Assembly: GCA_036785375.1 (NCBI GenBank) | Contig: JAWMAR010000027.1 | Span: forward strand, 6,572,001-6,636,000 | Origin: Leucoraja ocellata | Taxonomy: Eukaryota | DNA length: 64,000 bases | Direction: 5' to 3' | In this document: positions 6,267 through 40,586 of the stretch, one piece after another | How the letters are laid out: each line of letters begins with the position of its first letter | Numbering within the stretch: the stretch's first letter is position 1 | The notes under the pieces: model-generated | What the model was told of the DNA's origin: nothing | The model's input: the letters and a program-made list of their open reading frames with translations, nothing else | Databases searched by the model: none | Program-made: the position numbers and the translations under genes

Positions 6267-6492
6267 GAGACACAAGGAATTGCAGATGCTGGAAGTTTGA
6301 ACAAGCAAAAACTCTGGAGGAACTCAGCAGATCGGGCAGCATCTGTAGAGGGAATGGACAGGCACGGCTTTGGGCCAAGACACTTCTTCAGCCCAATTAG
6401 TCTGAAGAAGAGTCCCAACCCAAAATGTTACCTATCCATTCCCTCGACAGATGCATGCCTGACCTGCTGAGACCTTCCGGAATTTTCTGTTT
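6267..6492. mobile_element. Older Penelope terminal-repeat fold-back
   Basis: ...cttcttcagcccaattagtctgaagaag... at the centre, with diverged inverted arms. Confidence 0.65.
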
Positions 6493-8699
6493 AGATCTTT
6501 CTGAATCTCTAGAAGTGGGCAGTTGAAGCTGAAGTATCTCATCAGAGGATATTTTCCCATAATTAGAAATCCACATTGATAGTTTTTCCTTGTTGGTCGA
6601 GGTAATCATTATAGTTCTTTCATCCGTGTATGCCATGGAAAAGACTGCGATAACACACACTTATGGCTGGCTCTCTCAAGAGAGACTGGGTTTCTAAGTT
6701 TTGGTCATAGTTATTGTCATGGAATTATGGGATAGCACGCATTTTGCTTTCAAGGTGTGACATTCGGAAGAAGACACAAGGGAGAAAGGCCGATTTAAAA
6801 TTTTAAATTGTACTTGGGCATGTGCTCTCTGCCCTTTGCATAAACCAAAAATACTCTAAGTTAAAAATAAAGGCAAGTTAAATTTATCTCGAAAAGTACA
6901 ATCAGATTCATCTGGAAAACTGGTGCAATAGGATTTAACTTGGAATATCTCTGTGTTAAATGCACAATTTGCCTCTGGTGGAGAGCTAACACAGACAGGA
7001 TGAACCAAATGGCCACCTTCTGTGATGTAAACACTTTATGATTCTATGTTATAAGTGCAATTAGTTATTATTACAACTCCCTCCAATCTACTGATTAAAG
7101 AGGATAAAAACATTCAGAATGGAACAAAAGCTCAAAAGTTTGCCTTTGACATCAACAGCTCAGTATAATAATATTTATCCATGAACATTTAATTGCCAAA
7201 TCAACGCGCTCAGTCACCCTCAAATTAAATACATAATGTTGTGCCCTGAATGGTGTTATCCAACACTGAACACTTCGTGCTGATAAACATATTCAGGAAT
7301 AAATTGAAATGTGCTTCAATTTCATGCAGAGCAGAAAATATTGCCCAGCATTTACTTCACAGCATTATATTTCCACACTCTTATTCGTCAAAGAAAATCT
7401 CAAATATTAAATGCTGGTTTGGGTGAAATCCAAATCAAGATTTTCTATTTGTGATCAGTTCTAGAAAAAAATGTGTTACCCATGTTGCCCTGCGGAATTT
7501 CTTTTTGAGTTCTGGCAGTCATAAAAACATTTTAATCCAAAAATGTTTAGGGCTTTGTTTAATCTCTGACTCGCAATTCCATTTTGGTGAGTTGCCAATC
7601 ACCTTTACCAGCAAGCGGGGATCAGCTACTTCAAGCACTGCAGGGAGAAGTTGAATTGATAGGACGTCACTTTGGAGCGTGTATATCGAGCAGGTAATCG
7701 TACCATCAGTAGAGGGCTGGGGAAACACAATCACCATCTGCTTCCTTGGACAGGAATGGAGTGATCGCAGGAAGCCAAGACAGAATTTTAGACAAAGCAG
7801 AATATTTGCTATAATTTGATTAATGAAGAATATAATGTGATCATTTTTTTCTGAATTCTCACAAATTAAAACATTAGTGGATCTACCCTTACAAATATCC
7901 TTTACAATTCATGGAATCGTAGGAAGATACTGCATAGAAGGTGATTCAGTCCATCGTGCTTGCATTTGCTTTTTGGCTCATGTCTCCATCACTGACTAGT
8001 CCTTTACATTGGCAGAAATAGTGAACCATAAAAATACAAATTTAGATACATTTGTAGTGCTGTGGTGATGATTTCAGTTATAATTAAATACCGTTGCCTT
8101 ACACCAAATGACCTTTAAATTAATTTAGTAGTTTAAATGAATAGGATTAATTTTATTATACTGATCAATGATTTATGATATTGTTTACCTTTTCGTACAA
8201 AAATACATGTATCGATAAGAGCAAGTCAATATGTTACTTCATACACTGCTCGGATTCATTCACAATAAAGAACAGCAGGTCACACAAGTAAATGCCTGTG
8301 GTAGACCAGAGCAATGATGCCAACTAGAACACTACACACAGGCCAAGAAGGAGTTTGCTTTGACACGCTTACATTAACACACAAACCTCCCTCATTATAG
8401 GTTCGGTTGTAACTTTAACAGGCTGCTGGTTGTCTGCTGGCACAAATTGTAGTGCCATCAACAGAAAAACAATTCAATATTTGGCCCTGAACATTCCCAG
8501 ATGGTTTGCTGGAACTTCTATTGATATACAACAGTACTTTACTCAGGCCTGTCAGATGCTCAGCGTGACATTTCAAGCGGAACTCAGATCACATCGTACT
8601 TGGGAATTGCAAAAATGAAAAGATAAACATGGAAATTACAAGAAAATTACATGCATTTTCTTGTTATGCATACTTACACTTTAGCATTTTTAGTATTTT

Positions 8700-11310: not shown

Positions 11311-13934
11311 CTAGAATACAAAGGAGGGAATTTTTATTATAATATCTTATATATACCATGTCTTCTTGAATCACAAATCCATTCCAATATCAGACCAGAA
11401 TGATCTCACAGCAAATATACAGAGCGATGTTAAAATGCCTCAAGCTGATCCGACTTCACCAAGCTGAAAAGGACAACGGTAACTGTAAATAATGTCACAC
11501 CCGAAAACCACTACTCAGTTTATTTCCACTGAAAAATAATGTGAGATCAAATCACATAAAACAAATTCAGCAAAGATACAAAATATGTACGAAGTGTTAT
11601 GCCTGTCACAATAACATTTTTTTAAAAAGCTTGAAATGCTAATGTTGGTTGCTAATAAACATAAAAGTTCAAAATATGTTATTTTTACCTATTCTACACC
11701 GGTGCATCATTTCCAACTGAAATTAAAAACGCACGCATAAATACATGGTTAGTAGCTGATCTGACGGGAGATTTGACTAGGTGCAATTTTCTTTGGCTGG
11801 ATGGGTCAACAATAATTGAACCTTATCTACTGATCCTTATCAACAATAATTTCCCATTTTTGGTGACTGTCATAAAACGCGCCATTTTAATGATATTTTT
11901 CAAAAGACTGTTGGATATCCAAATAAACTCCATTTATGCCTCCCATTTGTCCATCCTTTATTACATTCTGAGATACTTGCAAACATTTATTAAACACAAT
12001 TTCCCTTTAATAAAATCATGCCAACTCTTTGCATCAATTATTAATTTCTGACTGGTCTACAATTACATTTGTAATAATCTCAATATTTTCCTGGATTTCC
12101 CAACTGACCAGGTCTTTGAGGCCAAGATAAGACTCAATATTTGAAGCATTTGAAGAAAGCTACAAGGTGCCGCTGGAAACGTGACGATACTTTGTGTACT
12201 GCCTCAGAAAATATCTACTGTTTTACATTATAGTCATTGCACACCTTTACTTATGTATGGGGATCATGACAGAAGCCTCCTCCTAGCGATCCCCGGAAAC
12301 GACGACACGATGCACTCTATGACGCGTTGGACGACCATGTTGGACGACGACAGAAGCCAACAGCGGGCTATACATCGTCTGACACACAGCAAACTTATGT
12401 ATGATTTGTGCTTATGTATAGTATTATTTTACTAGATTGTCTGCAAACCAAAGCATTTCACTGCATCAAGGTACATGTGAGAATAAAGTAACCGTTCCCC
12501 AGTTTCTTCCCCGCAACTCTCCTGCATGGATTAGATACATTTATGGTTTTACAATCTGATTTGATCTTTCCAGAACATACAGGATTATGGAAGTTCACAA
12601 GACACCCATCCACTTTAGCTACTTTTAATTAACATTTAGCCATTCAGATCCAGGAGATTGTTCTGCCTTTTGCCCCATTCATTCATTCATTGTCTATCAT
12701 CTATGCTCCAGTTTCAGGTTCTTCCCTCTTCTTTTGTCCCCAGATGTTCAACTATTATTGTGGTGTTTTCACAGTCAAGCCAGAAACAAAATGTTTGTTC
12801 AAAGACTTTGCTATTTCATTCACTTCCATCTCATCCTTTAAAGGAATCAGTGTTTACCTTTCTTGCTAAGTATTTGTTGAATCCACTTGAAGACAGGAAA
12901 ATGGGGTCAAGAGGGAGAGATGGATCAGCCATGATTGAATGGCAGGGTGGATTTAATGGGCCGAATGGCCTAATTCTGCTCCTATTACTTATTACATATC
13001 TGATTTATTTTTACTGGCTAGATTACTGTCAATCCATTTTCACTTTTTTCTTCAATAATCCTTTACTGGTTTCAAAACTTTTCTAATTGACAATATTATA
13101 TATTTTTTTCTGAATTTGATACCATGTTTGATTTCCTTAGTTACACATTGGATAAATCTTGCTTCTCCTAAAATCTGTGTACCTTAATGCAATATATATT
13201 GAGAACAATGCAAAGACTCTAAATACCCGTCACTGCTTATAACATCCTATGGCAACTGATGCTTAGGTTTGGATATCAATATTAATTCATCAACCTTGTG
13301 AGCTTAAAGGGTAGCACTGGTGAAGCAAGGTGTCAGTACTAGCTTCAGGCAGGACTCTGGTCCTTGCACATTGGTCTTCCATTTGACTGTGAGGACTTGC
13401 TGAATTGTACTGCTCTGAGGTGCTTTTAATCTTTATTAGATGCTGGCCTATGATTTATTTGAGTATTCATTGACATCAACATGATCCTTTGCACAATATA
13501 AATATGAATCCAAAAGGCAAGTATAAACCACAATAATTTGAGTTTGGAGTTGATCACCCTTTGTCTGATATTCCACCCCCCTACCCCCTCACCCTACCCC
13601 CCACCAAGACCTTATCATCATGGATAACTCAAATAGGGTTGCTGGACTCAAGAGTGTAATACTCTCACATTCATCGGCACAGCACGAGCTTCCATTCCAT
13701 CTCAAGGCTGCAATCTTAGCCAAGGTATCTCAGTAAATTGCAGCCTTGTTGTGGTGGTGAGGCCTGAATCTTTCAAATGCAATACCTTCTGCAACAAACC
13801 TACAGCGTTATCCATAGCAGTCAATTCAAAGGAGATGAACCAGGTGAATAGATATTTTAAGCACCATTTTGTTCGGTAGGTGATCAATGCTTCCTCCAGC
13901 AACAGTATTACATGGCATAAACGGCAATACTTAC

Positions 13935-14040
13935 TGGGGTGCTGGATTTCCTCTGGCTTCACACTTGATAATGAAATCATCAGTCGGATACACAACATGC
14001 CGCTTGGGCGACTGCTCCGTTATAGTAGGAGGCTGCTGAA
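13935..14040 (-). CDS. CHL1: L1-family CAM exon, Ig1 N-terminal half (106 nt)
   Basis: tttttttccAG...GTAAGT; encodes [34 protein letters not shown]; phase 1 to 2. Not in the supplied ORF track. Confidence 0.9.
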
Positions 14041-15109
14041 CTGGAAAAAAAATATTTTAAAGTAAAACATGAATTAGATTGAAGTGAAGTGGTGAAGTAC
14101 AATTCAAAATCAATTAATCATTCACACTAACAGCCGTAATTCTTCTCTTAAAGGCTTATGAGAGCTAAATTCTGATTAATTATGAGAAAATATTATGAGA
14201 AAAATTGAAGCATTTGAGGTCAAGATGTAGAAGCTGTTCACAAAGATGAAACACTGTAATGAGGTCTGTGTAATGAATACTTTTAATAATCCATTTCTGA
14301 GAGTTACCACTTCCAGTTGTATGAAAATAATTTGAAAGATCTGCTGGTGATATTATGATTACTATATTTCTCAGAACTATTCACTGCCATGCATGCAGAA
14401 TTTAAATTCCTCCTTTTCATTTGGGTTAATTTTTAATATCGAGGATTCCCACAGAGAAGTTTCACGGAAACATGTCATTTTGGTGTCTGCTCATCCAGAA
14501 AATACTCGCAGCACACTGAGATAAATATAAGCACTTGATAGAAGTTGACAAGAGCATAAAGAACATGACACTTGTTTCAAAGGAAATGCAAAAATGAGGA
14601 CAAGGCCATTTGACCCTTCGAGCTGTTCTACTACTGTAAACGATCACAGCTGATCATTCAAATTCAGTTGCATGTTTCTGCTTTCTCCCCATATTCCTTA
14701 ATCCTTCTCACCTCAAGAACAATACTTAACATCTTCTTGGATATATTTTATGATTTAGCTTCAACAATTATCTTTGGTAGGGAATTATATAGATTCACTG
14801 CTCCGTGGAGAAACTAATTCTTCTTTTCAATCTTAAATGGCTTAACTCTTATCATTACAATGTGATGCTACATCTTGGACTCCACACCATCATGTTGTAG
14901 ATTTCTAGAACCCCCCACCCCCCCACCTTCAAAACTCTGGTGAATCAATATATGATTTTGTAACCTGCACTGTCAAGGTTTAACCACCAGACAATTATAT
15001 GAAGAAAGCCATTTGGTGGATTGTAAGCCACCAATTTGGCATTCCAGAGTGATCATTATATATTTTAGATATTTAGAAATCATTAGGTTTCAGTAGATAT
15101 TTAGAGACC

Positions 15110-15544: not shown

Positions 15545-16635
15545 AGATAGGCACAAAATGCTGGAGTAACTCAACGGGTCAGACAGCATCCCTGCAGAAA
15601 AAGAATACATGATGTTTCGGGTCGAGACCTATTTTGCCAATGTTTGGCTCCACACTTATGACGTTATCGGAAAAAATAATTTACAACTCCTGCCCTCAAC
15701 TTTTGGATAACATTTACCATCTCGTTGGTGGACTAAAATGCTGGAGAAACTCAGCGGGTGAGGCAGCATCTATGGAGCGAAGGATTAGGTGACATTTCTG
15801 GCTGAGATCATCTTGTTGTACATACCAGGCATGAGGCATTAGCGGTAACACCAACATTTAGTTTACTTTTATCCATTCCCTCAATAATTTGTTTATAATA
15901 TATAAGATTGCTTCCGTTTGTTGACTTTCAGGTTAAAATGCCCTAGTTACGCCAATTTCTGCTCATAATCTGGACTCCAGATGTGGAGTTCCTAATCGCA
16001 CTTCTCAGTACCTCAGTCAACAAATGATTGCCTTAGGTGTAGAACTCATATTCTGTTTTTAAATCGAAGATAAACACAAAGTGCTGAAGTAACTCAGCGG
16101 GACTGGCAGCATCTCTGGAGAGAAGGTTGACTTTGTGTCGAGACCCTTCTTTGGGCTCGAAACGTCCCCCATTCTTCTCTCCAGAGATGTTGCCTGTCCC
16201 ACTTAGTTACTCCAGCATAACAATTGTCTCATGCCTGGATGCATTATTCTAGCTACTGTCTAACTTGCACACAATGAAGATTTTTTTTTTACTACTTTAG
16301 ATTTACCTGCAAATTTGCCGCAGATGGCAAAACTAAATGTGCTCTGCGATCGTGCCTACATTCATAATTCATTTGCAGAGAACAAAGTGCTAGACAACTC
16401 AGCGGGTCAGGCAATATCTCCGGAGGACATGGACAGGCAACGTTTCAAGTTGGGACCCTTCTTCAGATCCCTCGCCTGCAAATTCCTCCATAGATGCTGC
16501 TTGACCTGCTAAATTACTCCAGCACTTTATCATTCCAGCGAAATTACTCCACTAAATTACTCCAGCACCTGCTAAATTATTCCAGCACTTTAATTTCTAT
16601 GCAAAATTCTCGCATCTGCATTCATTGTGTCTCCA
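15545..16635. mobile_element. Cluster of four Penelope terminal-repeat copies or fold-backs
   Basis: Same family motif at about 15545, 15733, 16066-16220 and 16378-16635; the last has tandem aaattactccagcac copies. Confidence 0.65.
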
Positions 16636-19205: not shown

Positions 19206-21379
19206 CATATTATTTGCCGTCTGAGAACAGGGTTTGTGGAGTTGGGTCTTTGTGAGAATCTTGAGCAATTTGATTAGCCTGCAATATGGTTAGACACATG
19301 TGCAAGAAGGAACTGCAGATGCTGATTTACACTGAAAATAGACATAAAATGCTGGAGTAACTCAGCGGGTCAGGCAGCAGGTCTGGAGAAAAGGAATAGG
19401 TGGTGTTTCGGGTTGAAGCCCTTTTTCAGACTGAGAATCAGGAGAGAGGGAAATTGGAGGTACGAAATGTACTGATGACCAAGGATAGATGGGGCCCACA
19501 GTAGTCCATTGTTGACTGGCACCTCATTCACACCCATGACCATGTGAAAGCAGTGAAAGGTCTGTCCATGTGCTGCATATGCTATGTGTCCTATAAAATC
19601 CAATGTAATTTATACCGTAGCCATGACAGCAGCTCTGCAAACAGGTCAAGGACTGTTACCATTGGTTTGGAAAATCTTAGCCTTCAGAAAGCTGAAAATT
19701 GAAGGATGGCTCCCAGAATTTATGTGAGGGTATGCTCCCAGAACTTAAACACTACTTCCCTCTCTCTATCTGGATACCCAGCCATTCTGTCTTCACTCTC
19801 AGCTCATACAGTGCCCATAGTGAGGCCACCTCATAAATAGATTCCTTAGGCTAAGGGAGACCAAGGAAAATAAAATCATCCAGAGAGTAGCTGCAATCTG
19901 GAATACACGACCGGAGTTGGTGGTGGAGGCAGATAAACTCACAATTTAAAATATATCTCGATAAAAACTTAAATCGCAAAGACATAGAAGTCGGTGGAAC
20001 AAGTGTTGGCAAATGGAATTGGCACAGATGGTTGCCGTAGAACTGGCGAGCCGAAGGGCCTATTCCTTGGCTGTACGAGTCTATGACATATTGTGAGAAT
20101 AAATCAAAGGAATATTCAGGAAGGATCCAAAGTTTCTATGCTAAAGAGCTGAATGTTTCGAGTTGGGACCCTTCTTCAGATGAGCATCTTAAGAAGGGTG
20201 CCAATCCTAAACGTCATGTCCATTCCCCTCCACAGATGCTGCCTAACCCACTGAGTTCCTTCAGCAGTTTCTTCTTTACTCAATTCCAGCATCTGCAGCC
20301 TCTTGTATTTGGCATGTATCATGGCCAGGAATACCAGCTTAAATTTCCTGAACAGTAAAATGATTTCCTTTCCCCCCCATAACAAATCAATTTTATTCAA
20401 TCACGTTGCACTTAAAAACATTGCTAAGTTATCCAATATCTCAGCAAACTTTCTACCCCTTGCCATCCAACTGTCTACAGTTATTTCCTGAACTTTTTTT
20501 GCAGCTGAATCAGAAGAAACTTCATGAAATACTTATGAAAAGATCAGTGTCATTGTAATTCATCAATTGGGATTGCAAAATAGAATGGGAAAGCTCGATA
20601 ACAATGCATTGTGACAAACATTGAAACATGCAACAATTAAGGGGCCAACTCTATCGTTGTTAGCTCATCCAGCAGATTGTGAGTAACTACAGCACAACTG
20701 AGTCAAAATCCCAGACCCAACAAAATATTTGTTAATGTCACTGGAGTTTTGTTTTTATATTTTTCAGAAAAAGAATCATAGGATCATTGGACAGTGAGAA
20801 CAAATCACAAGTATATTTCCCAATATTATTTTCCAAATGTTTTCCAATGTCCTACTTGCTATTTGCTGGTGTGCCCACTGGCTGGTGTACCCACCAGCAT
20901 GGGGACAGCGTTCTAGCTGCTGATTACATTAATAAACTATTTCATTAAGGCACCTCTGATTTATTTGGCAATCACTTAAATCTATATTTTATCCCCCTTG
21001 TCATGCAAAAGACTGAAGATCCAATTTATTTAGTCCACCACATCCATTATGATTCTGAACGTCAAATAATTTATGCACCTGCCATACCTTGAGGAGAATA
21101 TCCCCGTTCACGAGTTTAACCACAAAAATAATCTCGCAGCTTTGAGAGTTATTCTAGTCAATTGCCTCTTCCAAATCACTAAAGTTTTCACATGCTTTCC
21201 AAAAGTGTGGAGCCCAGAACTGAACACAATCGAGCCAGGGTCAAATTTATTATTCATAAAGATATTGCAACTTAATGTAAGGTTAACTAAGTTGATAATA
21301 AAGCAAAAGAGATCTTGAACTCCATAGTTAAAAATGCAAAGCCTTGGAGCTTTTGTGCTTTATTAAGGTCTTGTTGAGC

Positions 21380-23465: not shown

Positions 23466-23483
23466 TTAGTTCATGAATGAAAG
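23466..23483 (-). CDS. CHL1: Candidate 18-nt phase 1-1 microexon (adds AFIHEL)
   Basis: ttttcattttccctttgctttccttggatataaAG|CTTTCATTCATGAACTAA|GTAAGT. Frame-preserving, no stop, and at the position of the L1CAM YEGHH, NrCAM and neurofascin N-terminal microexons. Confidence 0.7.
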   Translation of the reverse strand, partial: LSFMN

Positions 23484-23813
23484 CTTTATATCCAAGGAAA
23501 GCAAAGGGAAAATGAAAACAACAATTATTACATGCTCCATATTCTCCAGTCAGTTCTTTATTATGTCTTAAGCTTTGAGTATGAAAACTAGTCGATGCAA
23601 AAAGACAACTGATTACTTGTAGGTTGTATGCAAATGTAAAAATAATGCTAACTTATACTCGTAGATCGTAAAAGACGTATTTATTGTCTCAAATTGTGTT
23701 TGTTTAGCCATGCAGAAACAATACCATTTCAATTTGATGACATAAAGTGTTGTACAATGTTTGGATTGTCGCATTTAAGTGTATCATTTTCAAGAACAAA
23801 TTATTTCAAAAAT

Positions 23814-25330
23814 GTGTAGGAAAGAACAGCAGATGGCGGTTTAAATCGAAGGTAGACACAAAATGCTGGAGTAATCAGCAGGGCAGGCAGCATCTCTGGA
23901 GAGGCATGGGTGACGTTTCGTGTCGAGACCCTTCTTCAGACTGTTATCAGGAGAGTGGGCGGGACAGAGATAGAATGTAGTCGGAGACAGTAAGACTGGT
24001 GGGAGAACTGGGAAGGGGGAGGGGATGGAGAGAGAGGTAAAGCAAGGGCTATATGAAGTTAGAGAAGTCAATGTTCACACTGCTGGGGTGAATGCTACCC
24101 AAGTGAAATATGAGGTGCTGTTCCTCTAATTTGCGCTCAGCCTCACTCTGACAATGGAGGAGGCCGAGGACAGAAAGGTCAGATTGGGAAAGGGAAGAGG
24201 AGGTATAGTGCTGAGCAACCGGCAGATCAGGTAGGTTAAGGCGGTGGTGTTCAGAGAAACGATCGCCGAGCTTGCACTTGGTCTCATCGATATACAGGAG
24301 TTGACACCTGGAACAGCGGATACAGTAGATGAGGTTGGAGGAGGTGCAAGTAAACCTCTGCCTCACCTGAAAAGACTGCTGGGGTCCTTGGATGGAGTCG
24401 AGGTGGGAGGTAAAGGGACAGGTGTTGCATCCCCTGTAATTGCAGGGGAAAGTACCTGGGGAGGGGTGGTTTGGGTGGGAAGCGATGAGTTGACCTTCAA
24501 TGAGGGGATCAATGAGGGGATCTTATTGAAACATATAAGATTATTAAGGGTTTGGACATGATAGAGGCAGAAAACATGTTCCCATCATTGGGGGAGTCCA
24601 GAACCAGGGGCCACAATTTAAGAATAAGGGATAAGCCATTTAGAACGGAGATGAGGAAAAACTTTTTCACACAGAGACTTGTGAGCCTGTGGAATTCTCT
24701 GCCTCAGAAGGCAGTGGAGGCCTGTTCTCTGTATTGTTTCAAGAGAGAGTTAGATGGAGCTCTTAAAGATGGCGGAGTCAGGGGATATGTGGAAAGGGCA
24801 GAAACGGGGTACTGATTGTGGATGATCAGCCATGGTCACATTCAATGGCGGTGCTGGCTCGAAGAGCTGAATGGCCTACTGCACCTATTGTCTATTGACC
24901 AGGGTATTGCGGAGGGAATGGTTTCTGCTGAAAGCAGAAAGAAGAGGAGATGGGAAGATGTGGCCAATAGTGGGATCCCGTTGGAGGTGGCTAAAATGTT
25001 GGAGGATTATATGCTGTATGCGATGGCTGATGGGGTGAAAGGTGAGGACAAGGGGGACTGTCCTTTTTACGAATGGGGGGAGGGGGAGCAAGAGTGGAGC
25101 TACGGGATATCGGGGAGACCCTAGTGAGAGCTTTATCTTTAATGGAAAGGGGAAAACCCCGTTTCCTCAAGAATGAGGACATCTCCGATGGAAAGCCTAA
25201 TTCTGGGCGTAGATGCGGCGTAGACGGAGGAATTGGGAGTAGAGGGATAGAGTCTTAACAGGAAGCAGGGTGGGAAGAAGTGTAGTATAGATAGCTATGG
25301 GAGTCAGTGGGTTTGTAATAGATGTCAGTC
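23814..25330 (-). mobile_element. Penelope-like retroelement, 5'-truncated and decayed (RT C-terminus, linker, GIY-YIG endonuclease, terminal repeat)
   Basis: Minus ORF pieces MSSFLRKRGFP..., VPLVLTFHP...PLLSAFSRNHSLRNTLV and FTCTSSNLIYCIRCSRCQLLYIDETK..LGDRFSEH..VAQHY..EEQHLIF (PLE-type GIY-YIG), with frameshifts. Terminal repeat at about 23814-23945. Confidence 0.85.
24496..24894 (+). mobile_element. CR1/HER1-like LINE 3' fragment nested in the Penelope element
   Basis: ORF SRTRGHNLRIR..FRTEMRKNFFTQRLVSLWNSLP (CR1 ORF2 end) plus 3' tail; target duplication TTGACC at 24490-24495 and 24895-24900. Confidence 0.88.
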
Positions 25331-26715
25331 AATAATATGTCTAAATGCCTTGATTTATAAATTTTATTTTACTTATTGTAAAATGCCATTACTTCCTTCG
25401 TTGTGTGAAAGCAGTCTAGCAAAATGATGTTTTGTTCCTAGGTGTTCATATGTTTGGTTGTGCCCGATTTCACTGCTACGCTGATAGGATTGGTTTTAAC
25501 AGGGTAAGTTCAGGAAGCTGGAACTTCTTGGCTGAGCCTAAACAGGCGTCAATATAAAAATATGTTGCTGCTGGCAGAATTGGTAGTTCTGGTGCCAACA
25601 GTCTGGCCTTTTCTAAACCCCACATTTAAAACTTACTTGGATAAAACATTGCAATAGAGTCCTTGTTTTGTACCACAGAAAGAAAATCCAGTCAAATATA
25701 GGTTACTAGTTCAATCTAAACTGACAATGTAATAGCCAACAGTTAATTTAATTTCCTCCAATTACACTGTAATAGAACCACACAAATAATTCGATTTATC
25801 AGATGCAACATTGCAATCAGTTGAATCATTAATCAACTTAACATTCTTACAAGATTTGTTAGTTATTATACACATTTATTTATTAGGAACATTTTAATAA
25901 GTAAACTGGTGGACATCTTTGACATTCTTGATCATATCTAATTTTCTCGGCCTTTACTTATATACACACACCTGTGAATCTTAGTTATCTTGCACATATA
26001 TACACGCTTAATAATTGAGAAGAAAATCATAAACAGTATTAGCAGCAAATCCATCAATTAGCGTGTAAAACATTGACGAGCTTATCAGTAATGTTGCATT
26101 TATTAAAGCACAATGACAGCCACTTCATTAATTGATCAGTTATTCTTCTCGTTATATGTAGCTATCTTTTTTTATACTGCATATATAAGACGTCCTGTTA
26201 ATGAACATTTATGCTGCCATACCCAGCAGCCACATTAAAAGCCTGAATAATGGATCAAGTCTCATCAATAATTTATCGCACGTCAGTAGCTGGTTGCAAC
26301 TGGATCACAAAATTACTAAAGCTTGATAGGATTCTGCTGCAGATTTCTTGGCAGTATAAGGGATTTTATTTTTTTACCATTTTAACTCCTGAATATTAAA
26401 TTCATTTTCTCAGTTTTGGAAACAAGGATTTTTACCAATATTCTGGATGCTGCAATTTTCATCACAATAAAAGATAATTGTCAATGCAAAATTGAGAGCA
26501 AATTTAGACAAATAATTCCTAGCTATGCTATTCGAGATCAGAATAACAAAATTACACCAGCAGCATTCTAATTAATAAAGTCTTTCCAAAATTCATTAAT
26601 TTATATGGACAAGATGGGAAAAGAGCTAGTACCATTATCACATGTGAATTCACACATGAAACCAGATAGCCATAACATGATATAAAAAGCAGGTATTTAA
26701 TTAATTGATTCTTAC

Positions 26716-26794
26716 CATCTTCTGGAATCTCCATGGATGAACTCCACTTGGACCAACACAGAAAACATAACAGGAGAGTTCTTGTTAGTAGCAT
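26716..26794 (-). CDS. CHL1: L1-family CAM (CHL1-like), first coding exon: signal peptide
   Basis: ATG at 26794 gives MLLTRTLLLCFLCWSKWSSSMEIPED plus 1 nt, then a GTAAG donor. A hydrophobic signal followed by (M/I)EIP matches L1-family N-termini (CHL1 IEIPSS, L1CAM IQIPEE). Family is secure; the paralog is less so. Confidence 0.8.
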
Positions 26795-31081: not shown

Positions 31082-31276
31082 GTGTAAGAAAGAACTTCAG
31101 ATGCTGGTTTAAATCTAAGGTAGACACAAAACGCTGGAGTAACTCAGCGGGCCAGGCAGCATCTCTGGAGAGAAGGAATGGGTGACGTTACAGGTCGAGA
31201 CCCTTCTTCAGACCATTCCTTCTCTCCAGAGATGCTGCCTGTCCCGCTGAGTTACTCCAGCATTTTGTGTCTACCT
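31082..31276. mobile_element. Penelope terminal-repeat fold-back unit
   Basis: 65-bp inverted arms at 31117-31181 and 31213-31277 (2 mismatches); flanking 13-bp direct repeat TCTATTTCAACAT. Confidence 0.8.
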
Positions 31277-37655: not shown

Positions 37656-39683
37656 CAATACTCTAAGTACAGGCAGAGAGGTCACAAGTGGGGCCCCACG
37701 TACAATTTCAAGTCAAGGCCATTAAGCTCTGTAATATTAAGGTCTGCTAATTTCAAAACTGTGTTTGAAAATAATGCATTCTGTTCAATATGGCAGCTGC
37801 TGTGACTTGCACTACAAGTATGAGTAAAAGAACAAAGTGCTAGAATAACTCAGCAGCTTCGGCAGCACCTCTGAGGACATGAATAGACGATATTTGGGGT
37901 CGTGACCCTTCTTCAGACTGTTACGGTCCTTCGTGGAAGTCAGGCAGGTGATGAAGTATCGACTGAAGGCATGGATCCAGTGGATGATGAAGAGGAGTTG
38001 GTGTCCATGGCATGTCTGAGTGAGTGAGGCCCGTAGTTTTTGCAGAGACTGAGGGAGAGCCAGCCAGTACCGGCGCATGGTGGAGAATGCATGGAGGAAG
38101 AACTGTTGCTGGAAGTGGTGGATACCTTAGATCCAGGTCAGGTCTGAACTGGGAATCCTGGATTTGGAGTTGGAAGCCACAAGTCACAAGATTGTGATGC
38201 AGGTAAGTGCTGCAGAAACACACATGATCGTGGTTGCGTTTCTGGGTCAGAATATGGTAGAAAAGCAGGAATTACAGAGGAGGAGCAGTTAGAGCAAGTC
38301 TCACAAATCTCCCATCAGAGACAGGATAGGAACTCGAGGTGGGCATACTGAGGAGATTTCACAATGGAGCAGTAAAATTGAAACACAAGGAACTGCAGAT
38401 GCTGGAATCTTCAGCAAAACACCGAGAGGTTCAATATATCAGCGGGTCAGGCAGCATCTCTGGAGGACATGGATAGGCCACATTTCGTGTTGGAGCACTG
38501 CATCAAACTACAAATACGTGAATTTATATCAGAATCTGTCAGAAAATCAACATCCAAAGTGCCCAAACTGCCTCTGCTACATCAGATTCATTGTTTGTTA
38601 GAAGTTTCAAACTTCTATGCCTCATTAGTCACGGTAACTAAACATTCTGAGTCATAAATATGGTTGACCAACCTCTCAACTACTAAAGTCTATTTTTATG
38701 AGTGTGCAGTCTCAGAACACTTAAATATTAAATGATTCGTAAAATAATAAAAATCACCACATTCTCCTTAAAATGCATTCAAACGTCAAAAATGTCTAAA
38801 GTGGTTTCTGCAAAATCATATCAATGTGAAGTATATGTCATGTCTTTATTTCCAGACTTGTCATATACTTCAATCTGACGAATGCATCAGTAAACCTTTT
38901 CACTGGACACTTCAGTTCCACAATAAATGGAACTCAAAGTGATCACTTGACAGGTGGAATTTATAGTCTGCAATCCCCTAATTTTTTCAGGATAGTCTTG
39001 GTCAAGTTCCTTTGCTGCTGACTGGAAAATCCAGGACATTGTGACGATGGGCGAGGAAGAGCAAAGATGACTTCTAGTCTATAAGAAAAATTGGATTGGA
39101 CTACTTTTTACAACTTTATCTATTCCATTCAAAGTGCTAGTTTGGAGAATTTGTTTGGGTTTAGTTATCAACTAAGCCCTGGAGTAATTGGTCGAGTTAC
39201 CTAAAAACCTTATGTTAATGTGCACAAGGTTGTCAATAGCAGAGACACAAATCTTCACAGGATTAGTTTGAGCAGGCAAGTCCTGTTAATGAATCTAGCA
39301 ATCAAAAAGCCCGAGGAGCTGTTGTGGGAATGGACGAGGCGAACAACACAGATTTTCAAAGAAGGTCGGGTAATCCAACAATCAAAATCTCACATAAGAA
39401 TTATCGGTGGACAAACGGAAAAGGCCATTCAGTAATTTAAAAGCATTGTTTTTGTTAAAATAATGAACAATGGGAAGGATTATTCATTATAAAAACAGAT
39501 AAAGGCTATCGATTTTAAAATGTAGTCCCATCTTTATTATCGGACCAACTAGTAGAGATTTGTTTTATTTAGTTATTCCGTCATCGTGCAAAGTCCATTC
39601 CTGAACCCAGGAGACAATTAAGAGTAAACTACACAAGCAGGTCATGATGGTACACCTCTTTATTTTACAATAATCCAGAATTC

Positions 39684-40013
39684 GGTATATATCCGGTAGG
39701 CGGCGCGGCTCTGGCCAGCAGCGGCCTCTGCAGCCTGTCCGCGTTTTGTTATTTTTTGTCTGTGTTTCTGTGTAGTTTTTGTTATTTTATGTTGGGGTGT
39801 GTGTGTGGGGGGGTGGGGGTGGGGTGGGAGGGGGGGGGAAACTTTTGAATCTCTCCCTGCACTGGAGACCCGACCTTTCTCGTCGGGTCTCAGGTGTCGT
39901 TGAGGCCGCAACGAGGAGCGGCCTCCAACGGGAAGAAGCCGGGGACTCTGGTGCCGACTCACCTCACCGTCGCGGAGCTGGCCGAGACCGGAGCGGGTGG
40001 AGCGGTGGAGGAG

Positions 40014-40074
<61 letters not shown>

Positions 40075-40586
40075 GATGCCGCTGCTGAGTCGGAGGCTGC
40101 TACTGCGGGTCTGCGGACGGCTCGGACGACCCCGCGCGGCTCCCTGGAGGGAGACCGCTTTTCGGGCTGCTGCAACGGCGAATTCTCCCGCCCGTGTTGC
40201 GGGGTCGAAGAGCTCCTGGAGCGGGGCCTAACACCATTGCCCCGCGCGGCTGGAACGGCCGCGGGACTTTGCGAGCGCACACCGGGGGCTCCAACATCAA
40301 GACCCGGTGTGCGACCTTGCACCACCCGGCGTGGCTTCAATGGCCGCGGGACAATCGCCATCGCCAGCCGGGGGCTTTGACTTTGACTGTGACATCGGGG
40401 GGGGGGAGAGTGCAGTGGAGAGATAAGTTTTTTTGGCCTTCCATCACAGTTATGTGATGGATGTTTATGTTAAATGTAATTATGTTGTGTCTGGGGTCTA
40501 TTTGTGTGTAATGTATGGCTGCAGAAACGGCATTTCGTTTGGACCCCCAGGGGTCCAAATGACAATTAAATTGACTCTTGACTCTT
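39684..40586 (+). mobile_element. GC/CpG-rich ~0.9-kb putative non-autonomous retroposon
   Basis: Sharp compositional edges, 3' end gacaattaaattGACTCTTGACTCTT, flanking GAATTC at 39678-39683 and 40587-40592. Confidence 0.65.
40015..40071. repeat. (GCT)19 trinucleotide repeat
   Basis: Pure tract, read directly. Confidence 0.97.

Follow-up and report, generated by a model that had tools for sequence, protein, structure and literature searches.

The window analysed here, a stretch of 64,000 nt, contains exons of a skate adhesion gene of the L1 family (L1CAM or CHL1) on its minus strand (Table 1). The exon at 11310-11117 matches proteins that are annotated in chondrichthyans as 'neural cell adhesion molecule L1-like protein', with 92% in the match to a skate, and by tblastn further coding exons of the host gene were placed at 26794-26717, at 14041-13934 and onward. 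Between the first two of these resides an 18-nt microexon, which a simple splice-site scan did not pick out and for which the support comes from homology. The microexon preserves the reading frame, the protein being ED-A-FIHEL-I-QQP upon inclusion and ED-V-QQP upon skipping, and of 15 chondrichthyan proteins, 7 contain the corresponding six-residue insert and 8 lack it, both groups including sharks and rays. Based on this comparison of protein sequences, we consider the microexon to be real. As it is common to sharks and rays, it likely predates, and by far, the insertion of the approximately 6%-diverged element described below. It presumably occupies a place equivalent to that of a microexon of the same length in NRCAM. 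The latter, also of 18 nt, has been described for the human gene (PMC12456627).

Intron 1 of the host gene harbors a fragment of a Penelope-like element (PLE). Related loci align to this fragment by blast across approximately 23813-24495 and 24895-25342, and another repeat is nested between the two parts, which by its likeness may be the 3' end of a CR1/L2-type LINE. Longer copies of the family possess a YIDD-type motif, which we assume to be that of the RT, followed downstream by a CxxxCxxC linker and then by a GIY-YIG region, where they read YIGET and the window copy reads YIDET. The Pfam match to GIY-YIG reached E=3.6e-4 (below cutoff) in L144, one of two longer copies, and E=0.12 in the window copy, and at E<=0.1 no Pfam family was obtained from six frames of the window. 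L144 displays the layout of an EN+ PLE, that is, an RT followed by a C-terminal GIY-YIG endonuclease, with the latter match being weak. Judged from this order of motifs, the focal element is an EN+ Penelope-like element, of which the window holds a 5'-truncated and frame-broken copy. A CX2-5CxxC linker between RT and EN has been described as a feature of Neptune that is common to Nematis, too (PMC8557442), and the Cys-rich linker of the focal element fits either of these groups.

The hammerhead motif is located about 110 nt past the stop codon of the GIY-YIG-type frame (24522-24049), in the terminal repeat of the PLE, where it is present once and joined to PLE coding sequence. Directly ahead of its core, a pyrimidine-rich tract ends in CAG, and among the 48 copies with shared upstream sequence 92% have the AG, and the pyrimidine content is 81%. 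The tract resembles the 3' splice site that closes the Penelope intron of D. virilis, which lies at helix I (PMC4209133); use of the focal tract as a splice site is putative. Non-LTR retrozymes, which consist of tandem units with a type-I hammerhead in each (bioRxiv 10.64898/2026.07.22.740005), were considered as a different origin of the motif and excluded by the single copy joined to PLE coding sequence and by the distance of the nearest same-strand family matches, which lie at about 3.8 kb and 7.3 kb from the focal copy.

Table 1. Features at the locus, with positions counted from the first nucleotide of the window.
Feature	Position	Strand	Basis and remarks
First coding exon of host gene, signal peptide	26717..26794	-	tblastn
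5'-truncated PLE fragment	23813..25342	-	RT-region end, Cys-rich linker, GIY-YIG, 3' UTR, hammerhead, ~100-nt terminal module; frames broken; ends approximate
Nested unrelated repeat	24495..24895	+	blast alignment pieces; frame 24516-24815; ends approximate
Decayed stretch coding for linker and GIY-YIG endonuclease	24049..24480	-	CxxxCxxC linker; Pfam E=0.12
Pyrimidine-rich tract ending in CAG, 3'-splice-site-like	23941..23970	-	directly before core; putative
Minimal type-I hammerhead motif	23910..23941	-	2-bp helix I, CUGAAGA core, bulged A, mismatched stem II, GAAA, ACGU
Terminal module common to the whole repeat family	23813..23909	-	profile search for the family
18-nt microexon of host gene	23466..23483	-	AG and GTAAGT ends; homology
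Host exon after the microexon, start of Ig1	13934..14041	-	tblastn

A minimal hammerhead in the terminal repeat

On the minus strand the motif reads CAGT-CTGAAGA-A-GGGT-CTCG-ACAC-GAAA-CG-TC-ACC, in agreement with an earlier sequence-only reading of this DNA, and its numbering places C3 at 23939, G10.2 at 23930, the mismatched A11.2 at 23921, H17 at 23912 and N1.1 at 23911. Cleavage is predicted to occur after C17, i.e. between 23912 and 23911. The catalytic boxes CUGANGA and GAAA..UH are present with 11 of 11 core bases and an intact C17, an unpaired A is bulged out between A9 and 10.1, the pair G10.1-C11.1 is present, and a palindromic 15.2-16.2 (ACGU) replaces helix III. The arms of stem II, GGGT and ACAC, flank a CTCG loop and contain the one mismatch that had already been pointed out, G10.2·A11.2 (23930/23921). 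Stem I had been called weak, and helix I indeed comprises 2 continuous bp, the pair 2.5-1.5 being lost in the focal copy.

This architecture is that of the minimal hammerheads (min-HHR) of metazoan PLEs, of which the single motif remained uncleaved and dimers were cleaved little (PMC4209133, Cervera and De la Pena 2014). Shared with this class are the CUGANGA and GAAA boxes, the one unpaired base before stem II, the G10.1-C11.1 pair, the palindromic 15.2-16.2, the lack of helix III and the position in PLE terminal repeats, as well as an occurrence mostly as solitary copies with some opposite-strand pairs (PMC4209133). In the skate family, the terminal module often occurs in inverted pairs arranged head to head, with 116 pairs among 671 matches; examples within the window are located at 6306-6494, 16068-16218, 20152-20275 and 31118-31276. 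The skate family departs from the motifs of Schistosoma (PMC4209133) in its stem II, which has 4 bp and a tetraloop as compared to 7-8 bp, and in its continuous helix I of 2 bp as compared to 4-5 bp. Based on the element context and on the agreement with the published architecture, we consider the focal sequence to be a genuine minimal type-I hammerhead of the metazoan PLE class, as the sequence-only reading had proposed. Within that class we regard the copy, again from its letters, as degenerate, a descendant rather than an intact member, because a continuous and stable helix II is absent; its broken stem II is a departure from the min-HHR as defined in PMC4209133. Literature searches found no report of the motif in skates or sharks, though that study may contain a shark entry in its figures or supplement.

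A search for hammerheads with Rfam gave no match, either in the whole window at the gathering threshold or in 23700-24200 at E<=10. In contrast, a strict descriptor that was written after the published min-HHR definition (PMC4209133) produced 30 matches in 910 kb, all 30 of which fall inside the focal repeat family and none outside it, and no match in any of 10 shuffles. The focal copy itself does not pass the descriptor. Constraint on the motif was further assessed among 10 subfamily consensuses built from 383 copies. Here, the core varies at 1 of 13 positions and inner stem II at 1 of 6, whereas variation is seen at 4 of the 6 free positions (N7, loop 2, H17) and at 12 of 18 positions just downstream. 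From this pattern, the hammerhead seems to have been retained in the source elements, although the more distant tail is fairly constant as well, with 11 of 40 variable positions. It is hardly credible that the match is a chance resemblance and no hammerhead at all, an explanation that could draw on the missing Rfam match, on the 2 bp of helix I and on the lack of convincing two-sided covariation in stem II, but which has to account for a descriptor confined to one repeat family (30 of 30, with none in 10 shuffles), for a core far less variable than its free and downstream positions, and for the agreement of both architecture and PLE position with the published class (PMC4209133).

In the family consensus, helix II consists of a continuous 4 bp at -3.4 kcal/mol. 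It is nearly invariant among the subfamilies, the single change being a one-sided one from U-A to U·G, and two-sided changes are near independence in the 207 of 383 copies that are without indels. In a covariation set of 81 sequences, in which the focal copy was joined by 80 of the 159 copies that were eligible, the observed value for stem II pairs with two-sided change was reached by 239 of 500 shuffles; the observed cell count and covariation score were reached by none of the 500, a result which relatedness, even by itself, and CpG decay can produce. Helix I comprises 2 continuous bp in most copies, and the pair 2.5-1.5 is found in 54% of the 207 copies. The oldest subfamily in the sample (8-12 copies) has a CUGAUGA core and a possible 4-bp helix I (AGUU/AACU). 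Core and palindrome are kept together in 91 of the 415 core-covering copies; 29 of these lack an intact stem II, and the other 62, corresponding to about 15% of the core-covering copies, count as intact. The only copy in the window that passes the descriptor is located at 16439-16466 on the minus strand, in the intron after the microexon; its stem II includes two G·U pairs, at +1.1 kcal/mol.

Divergence and folding of the focal copy

Compared to the majority of 48 close alignments, the focal copy differs at 41 of 668 positions overall (~6%), at 4 of 50 around the motif and at 1 of 28 in the core. The motif is, accordingly, not conserved in excess of its flanks (4/50 versus 41/668), which rules against a domesticated intronic ribozyme. 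Domesticated intronic hammerheads have been described in RECK, CTCL and DTNB (PMC6155905), and the Cpeb3 ribozyme is likewise intronic and tunes its host transcript (PMC10919898). The skate motif is similar to these in being an intronic ribozyme-like motif sense to the host pre-mRNA; however, they are conserved among distant species or were shown to be active (PMC6155905, PMC10919898), whereas the skate copy is a lineage-level repeat which has lost stem II.

The sole difference in the core is a C-to-A change at 23921, which creates the G10.2·A11.2 mismatch beside the closing pair G10.1-C11.1. The computed energy of stem II is +0.3 kcal/mol in the focal copy versus -3.4 kcal/mol in the intact motif, and that of the active dimer +8.1 versus -6.1 kcal/mol, with Mg2+, tertiary contacts and help by proteins being left out of the folding energies. 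In a context of 300 nt, the pair probability of stem II is 0.0 for the focal copy, as compared to a mean of 0.21 and a median of 0.06 for 40 intact copies. According to these folding models, the G·A mismatch abolishes stem II of the focal copy. A competing hairpin is predicted at 23908-23931, in which the stem II arm GGGU pairs with ACCC just past the cut site. By computation, it is preferred by the focal copy and by the subfamily consensus as well, and the letters of the other main subfamilies also permit it; this hairpin may represent an off-state.

We conclude, with a probability of about 0.9, that the motif is a minimal hammerhead at the 3' end of a broken PLE and that this copy is likely an inert fossil, which does not cut the pre-mRNA and has no control over the microexon. 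Going by published work, the motif of the active parent element would cut RNA only as a dimer formed via the ACGU palindrome or together with the element's protein. After insertion, the focal copy may have drifted neutrally, and the change at 23921 would have left only the competing hairpin. Some observations argue the other way. The focal copy has kept an intact core together with C17 and the CG palindrome, and the 100 nt upstream show a single difference, in a region by whose likeness the comparison copies were partly chosen. Contigs of a related species extend into both ends of the element, breaking within the repeat, and since both ends are reached, the insertion is shared and has been kept for some time.

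Distance to the microexon and signs of activity

The cut site is 428 nt away from the microexon, which lies downstream in the sense of the transcript. Hence, the motif is, as had been stated, sense to the host pre-mRNA and about 430 nt upstream of a microexon that is real. The weight of this distance depends on the abundance of the family, which was estimated by a profile search for the terminal module, the sample being 120 arbitrary 10-kb pieces of large contigs together with 310 kb around the window. The profile gave 363 matches in 910 kb and none in a shuffle, and 671 matches in a larger sample of 1.51 Mb, i.e. about 0.44 copies per kb; 28 matches are within the window. Extrapolation to the genome yields about 1.5 million copies, a rough figure that rests on arbitrary pieces of large contigs and the surroundings of the window. 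For a given point, the probability that a core-covering sense copy lies in the 430 nt upstream of it is 0.057, and the probability that any family copy lies within 430 nt is 0.32. The motif is close to the microexon by chance position, and this closeness is unremarkable because the density of copies is so high.

The sequence-only reading had further suggested that the motif could affect the nascent RNA. This might be envisaged as cleavage of the nascent pre-mRNA, by a dimer with another copy or with PLE protein, which would tune the output of host mRNA or the inclusion of the microexon in a manner similar to Cpeb3. The sense orientation, the intact core and palindrome, and the many other family RNAs that are present in cells, as judged by reads of a related species, are in line with such a role. 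In addition, protein-assisted cleavage has been published for another PLE (PMC11167929), and there are precedents for intronic ribozymes (PMC6155905, PMC10919898). We nevertheless regard cleavage of the pre-mRNA as highly improbable. Stem II is lost, with the active dimer at +8.1 kcal/mol, and among the terminal-module matches there is no second family copy in intron 1 that could act as a partner. The motif lacks excess conservation, its closeness to the microexon is expected from copy density, and the microexon is shared with distant relatives and would be older than the insertion. Moreover, sense copies are not depleted in the host gene, which has 28 core-covering copies in sense and 27 in antisense orientation (3 and 1 of which, respectively, are intact). 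A bias towards sense among the core-covering copies of the window vanished over the whole host gene, and the 10-kb pieces revealed no strand clustering (125 of 243 pairs).

An effect on splicing that does not require catalysis is very unlikely as well. Here, the pyrimidine tract with its CAG, which precedes the core in this copy and in 92% of the 48 copies, would offer a decoy 3' splice site, which lies some 457 nt ahead of the AAG acceptor of the microexon, or the 1.5 kb of inserted sequence would shift inclusion; the intron of the D. virilis PLE that closes at helix I (PMC4209133) provides a parallel. However, the equal numbers of sense and antisense copies in the host gene (28 versus 27) speak against this explanation, as do the position of the PLE fragment, whose end lies about 330 nt ahead of the microexon and outside the microexon's own pyrimidine tract, and the lack of a junction at the focal AG among the joints listed for a related species, a list outside which 3626 further joints fall.

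Traces of cleavage were sought in the genome and in RNA reads. Only 4 of 614 tail-reaching copies start at the cut column, and no peak is present there. Among 294 anchored copies (of 383), up to 146 are without shared sequence upstream of the motif and begin a few bases upstream of the core, corresponding to 23940-23943 of the window, rather than at the cut site. A further 100 are accompanied by an inverted partner, and in 48 the alignment runs on into shared element sequence. Start points just ahead of the hammerhead agree with the proposal from published work that PLE insertion uses uncut RNA as its template. The RNA reads came from two libraries of a related species, stranded as judged by exon bins, and cover the motif bin near-equally on both strands (1294/1332 and 1072/906). 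No pile-up of ends was observed at 23911-23912 among the six listed. Reads of this kind represent the whole family in another species and not the focal locus, and such libraries are poor for cleavage ends; the absent pile-up is, therefore, weak evidence on cleavage. Similarly, RNA-seq ends at the hammerhead site were reported as not found for PAc, the Poseidon element of Anolis carolinensis, the hammerhead of which cut only with its protein and was not needed for insertion (PMC11167929, Frangieh et al. 2024). The skate motif is like that of PAc in being the terminal hammerhead of a vertebrate PLE without RNA-seq ends at the cut site; in contrast to PAc, an intact Poseidon element active with its protein (PMC11167929), the skate copy is a truncated fossil with a Cys-rich linker of the Neptune or Nematis type.

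If the focal copy did regulate the microexon, this would be a case of a retroelement ribozyme co-opted for the control of neural splicing. The evidence points to neutral debris instead, and it is the family, with its roughly 1.5 million copies and about 15% of the core-covering ones intact, that may be useful as material. It might be hypothesized that these PLE ends, with an acceptor-like tract and an off-state hairpin, provide sense copies that are cut with PLE protein or partner RNA, or that act as decoy acceptors, and that in this way inclusion of the neural L1-family microexon is shifted in skates; we consider this to be very unlikely.

Two features of the contig lie apart from the motif. 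The 5' half of the host gene is present a second time, in inverted orientation and over at least 140 kb with about 96-98% identity, approximately 6,280,001-6,419,500 of the contig corresponding to 6,543,200-6,687,200, the latter containing the whole window. The differences of this inverted copy match the variants of one sequencing run, and another run mostly carries the letters of the window in unbroken contigs. These sequences make it likely that a second haplotype was left uncollapsed in the assembly and that there is no true duplication; near-identical pairs of a similar kind are also found on other contigs. Finally, 39660-40469 of the window is GC-rich, contains a long triplet run of the GCN type and is open in several frames on both strands.
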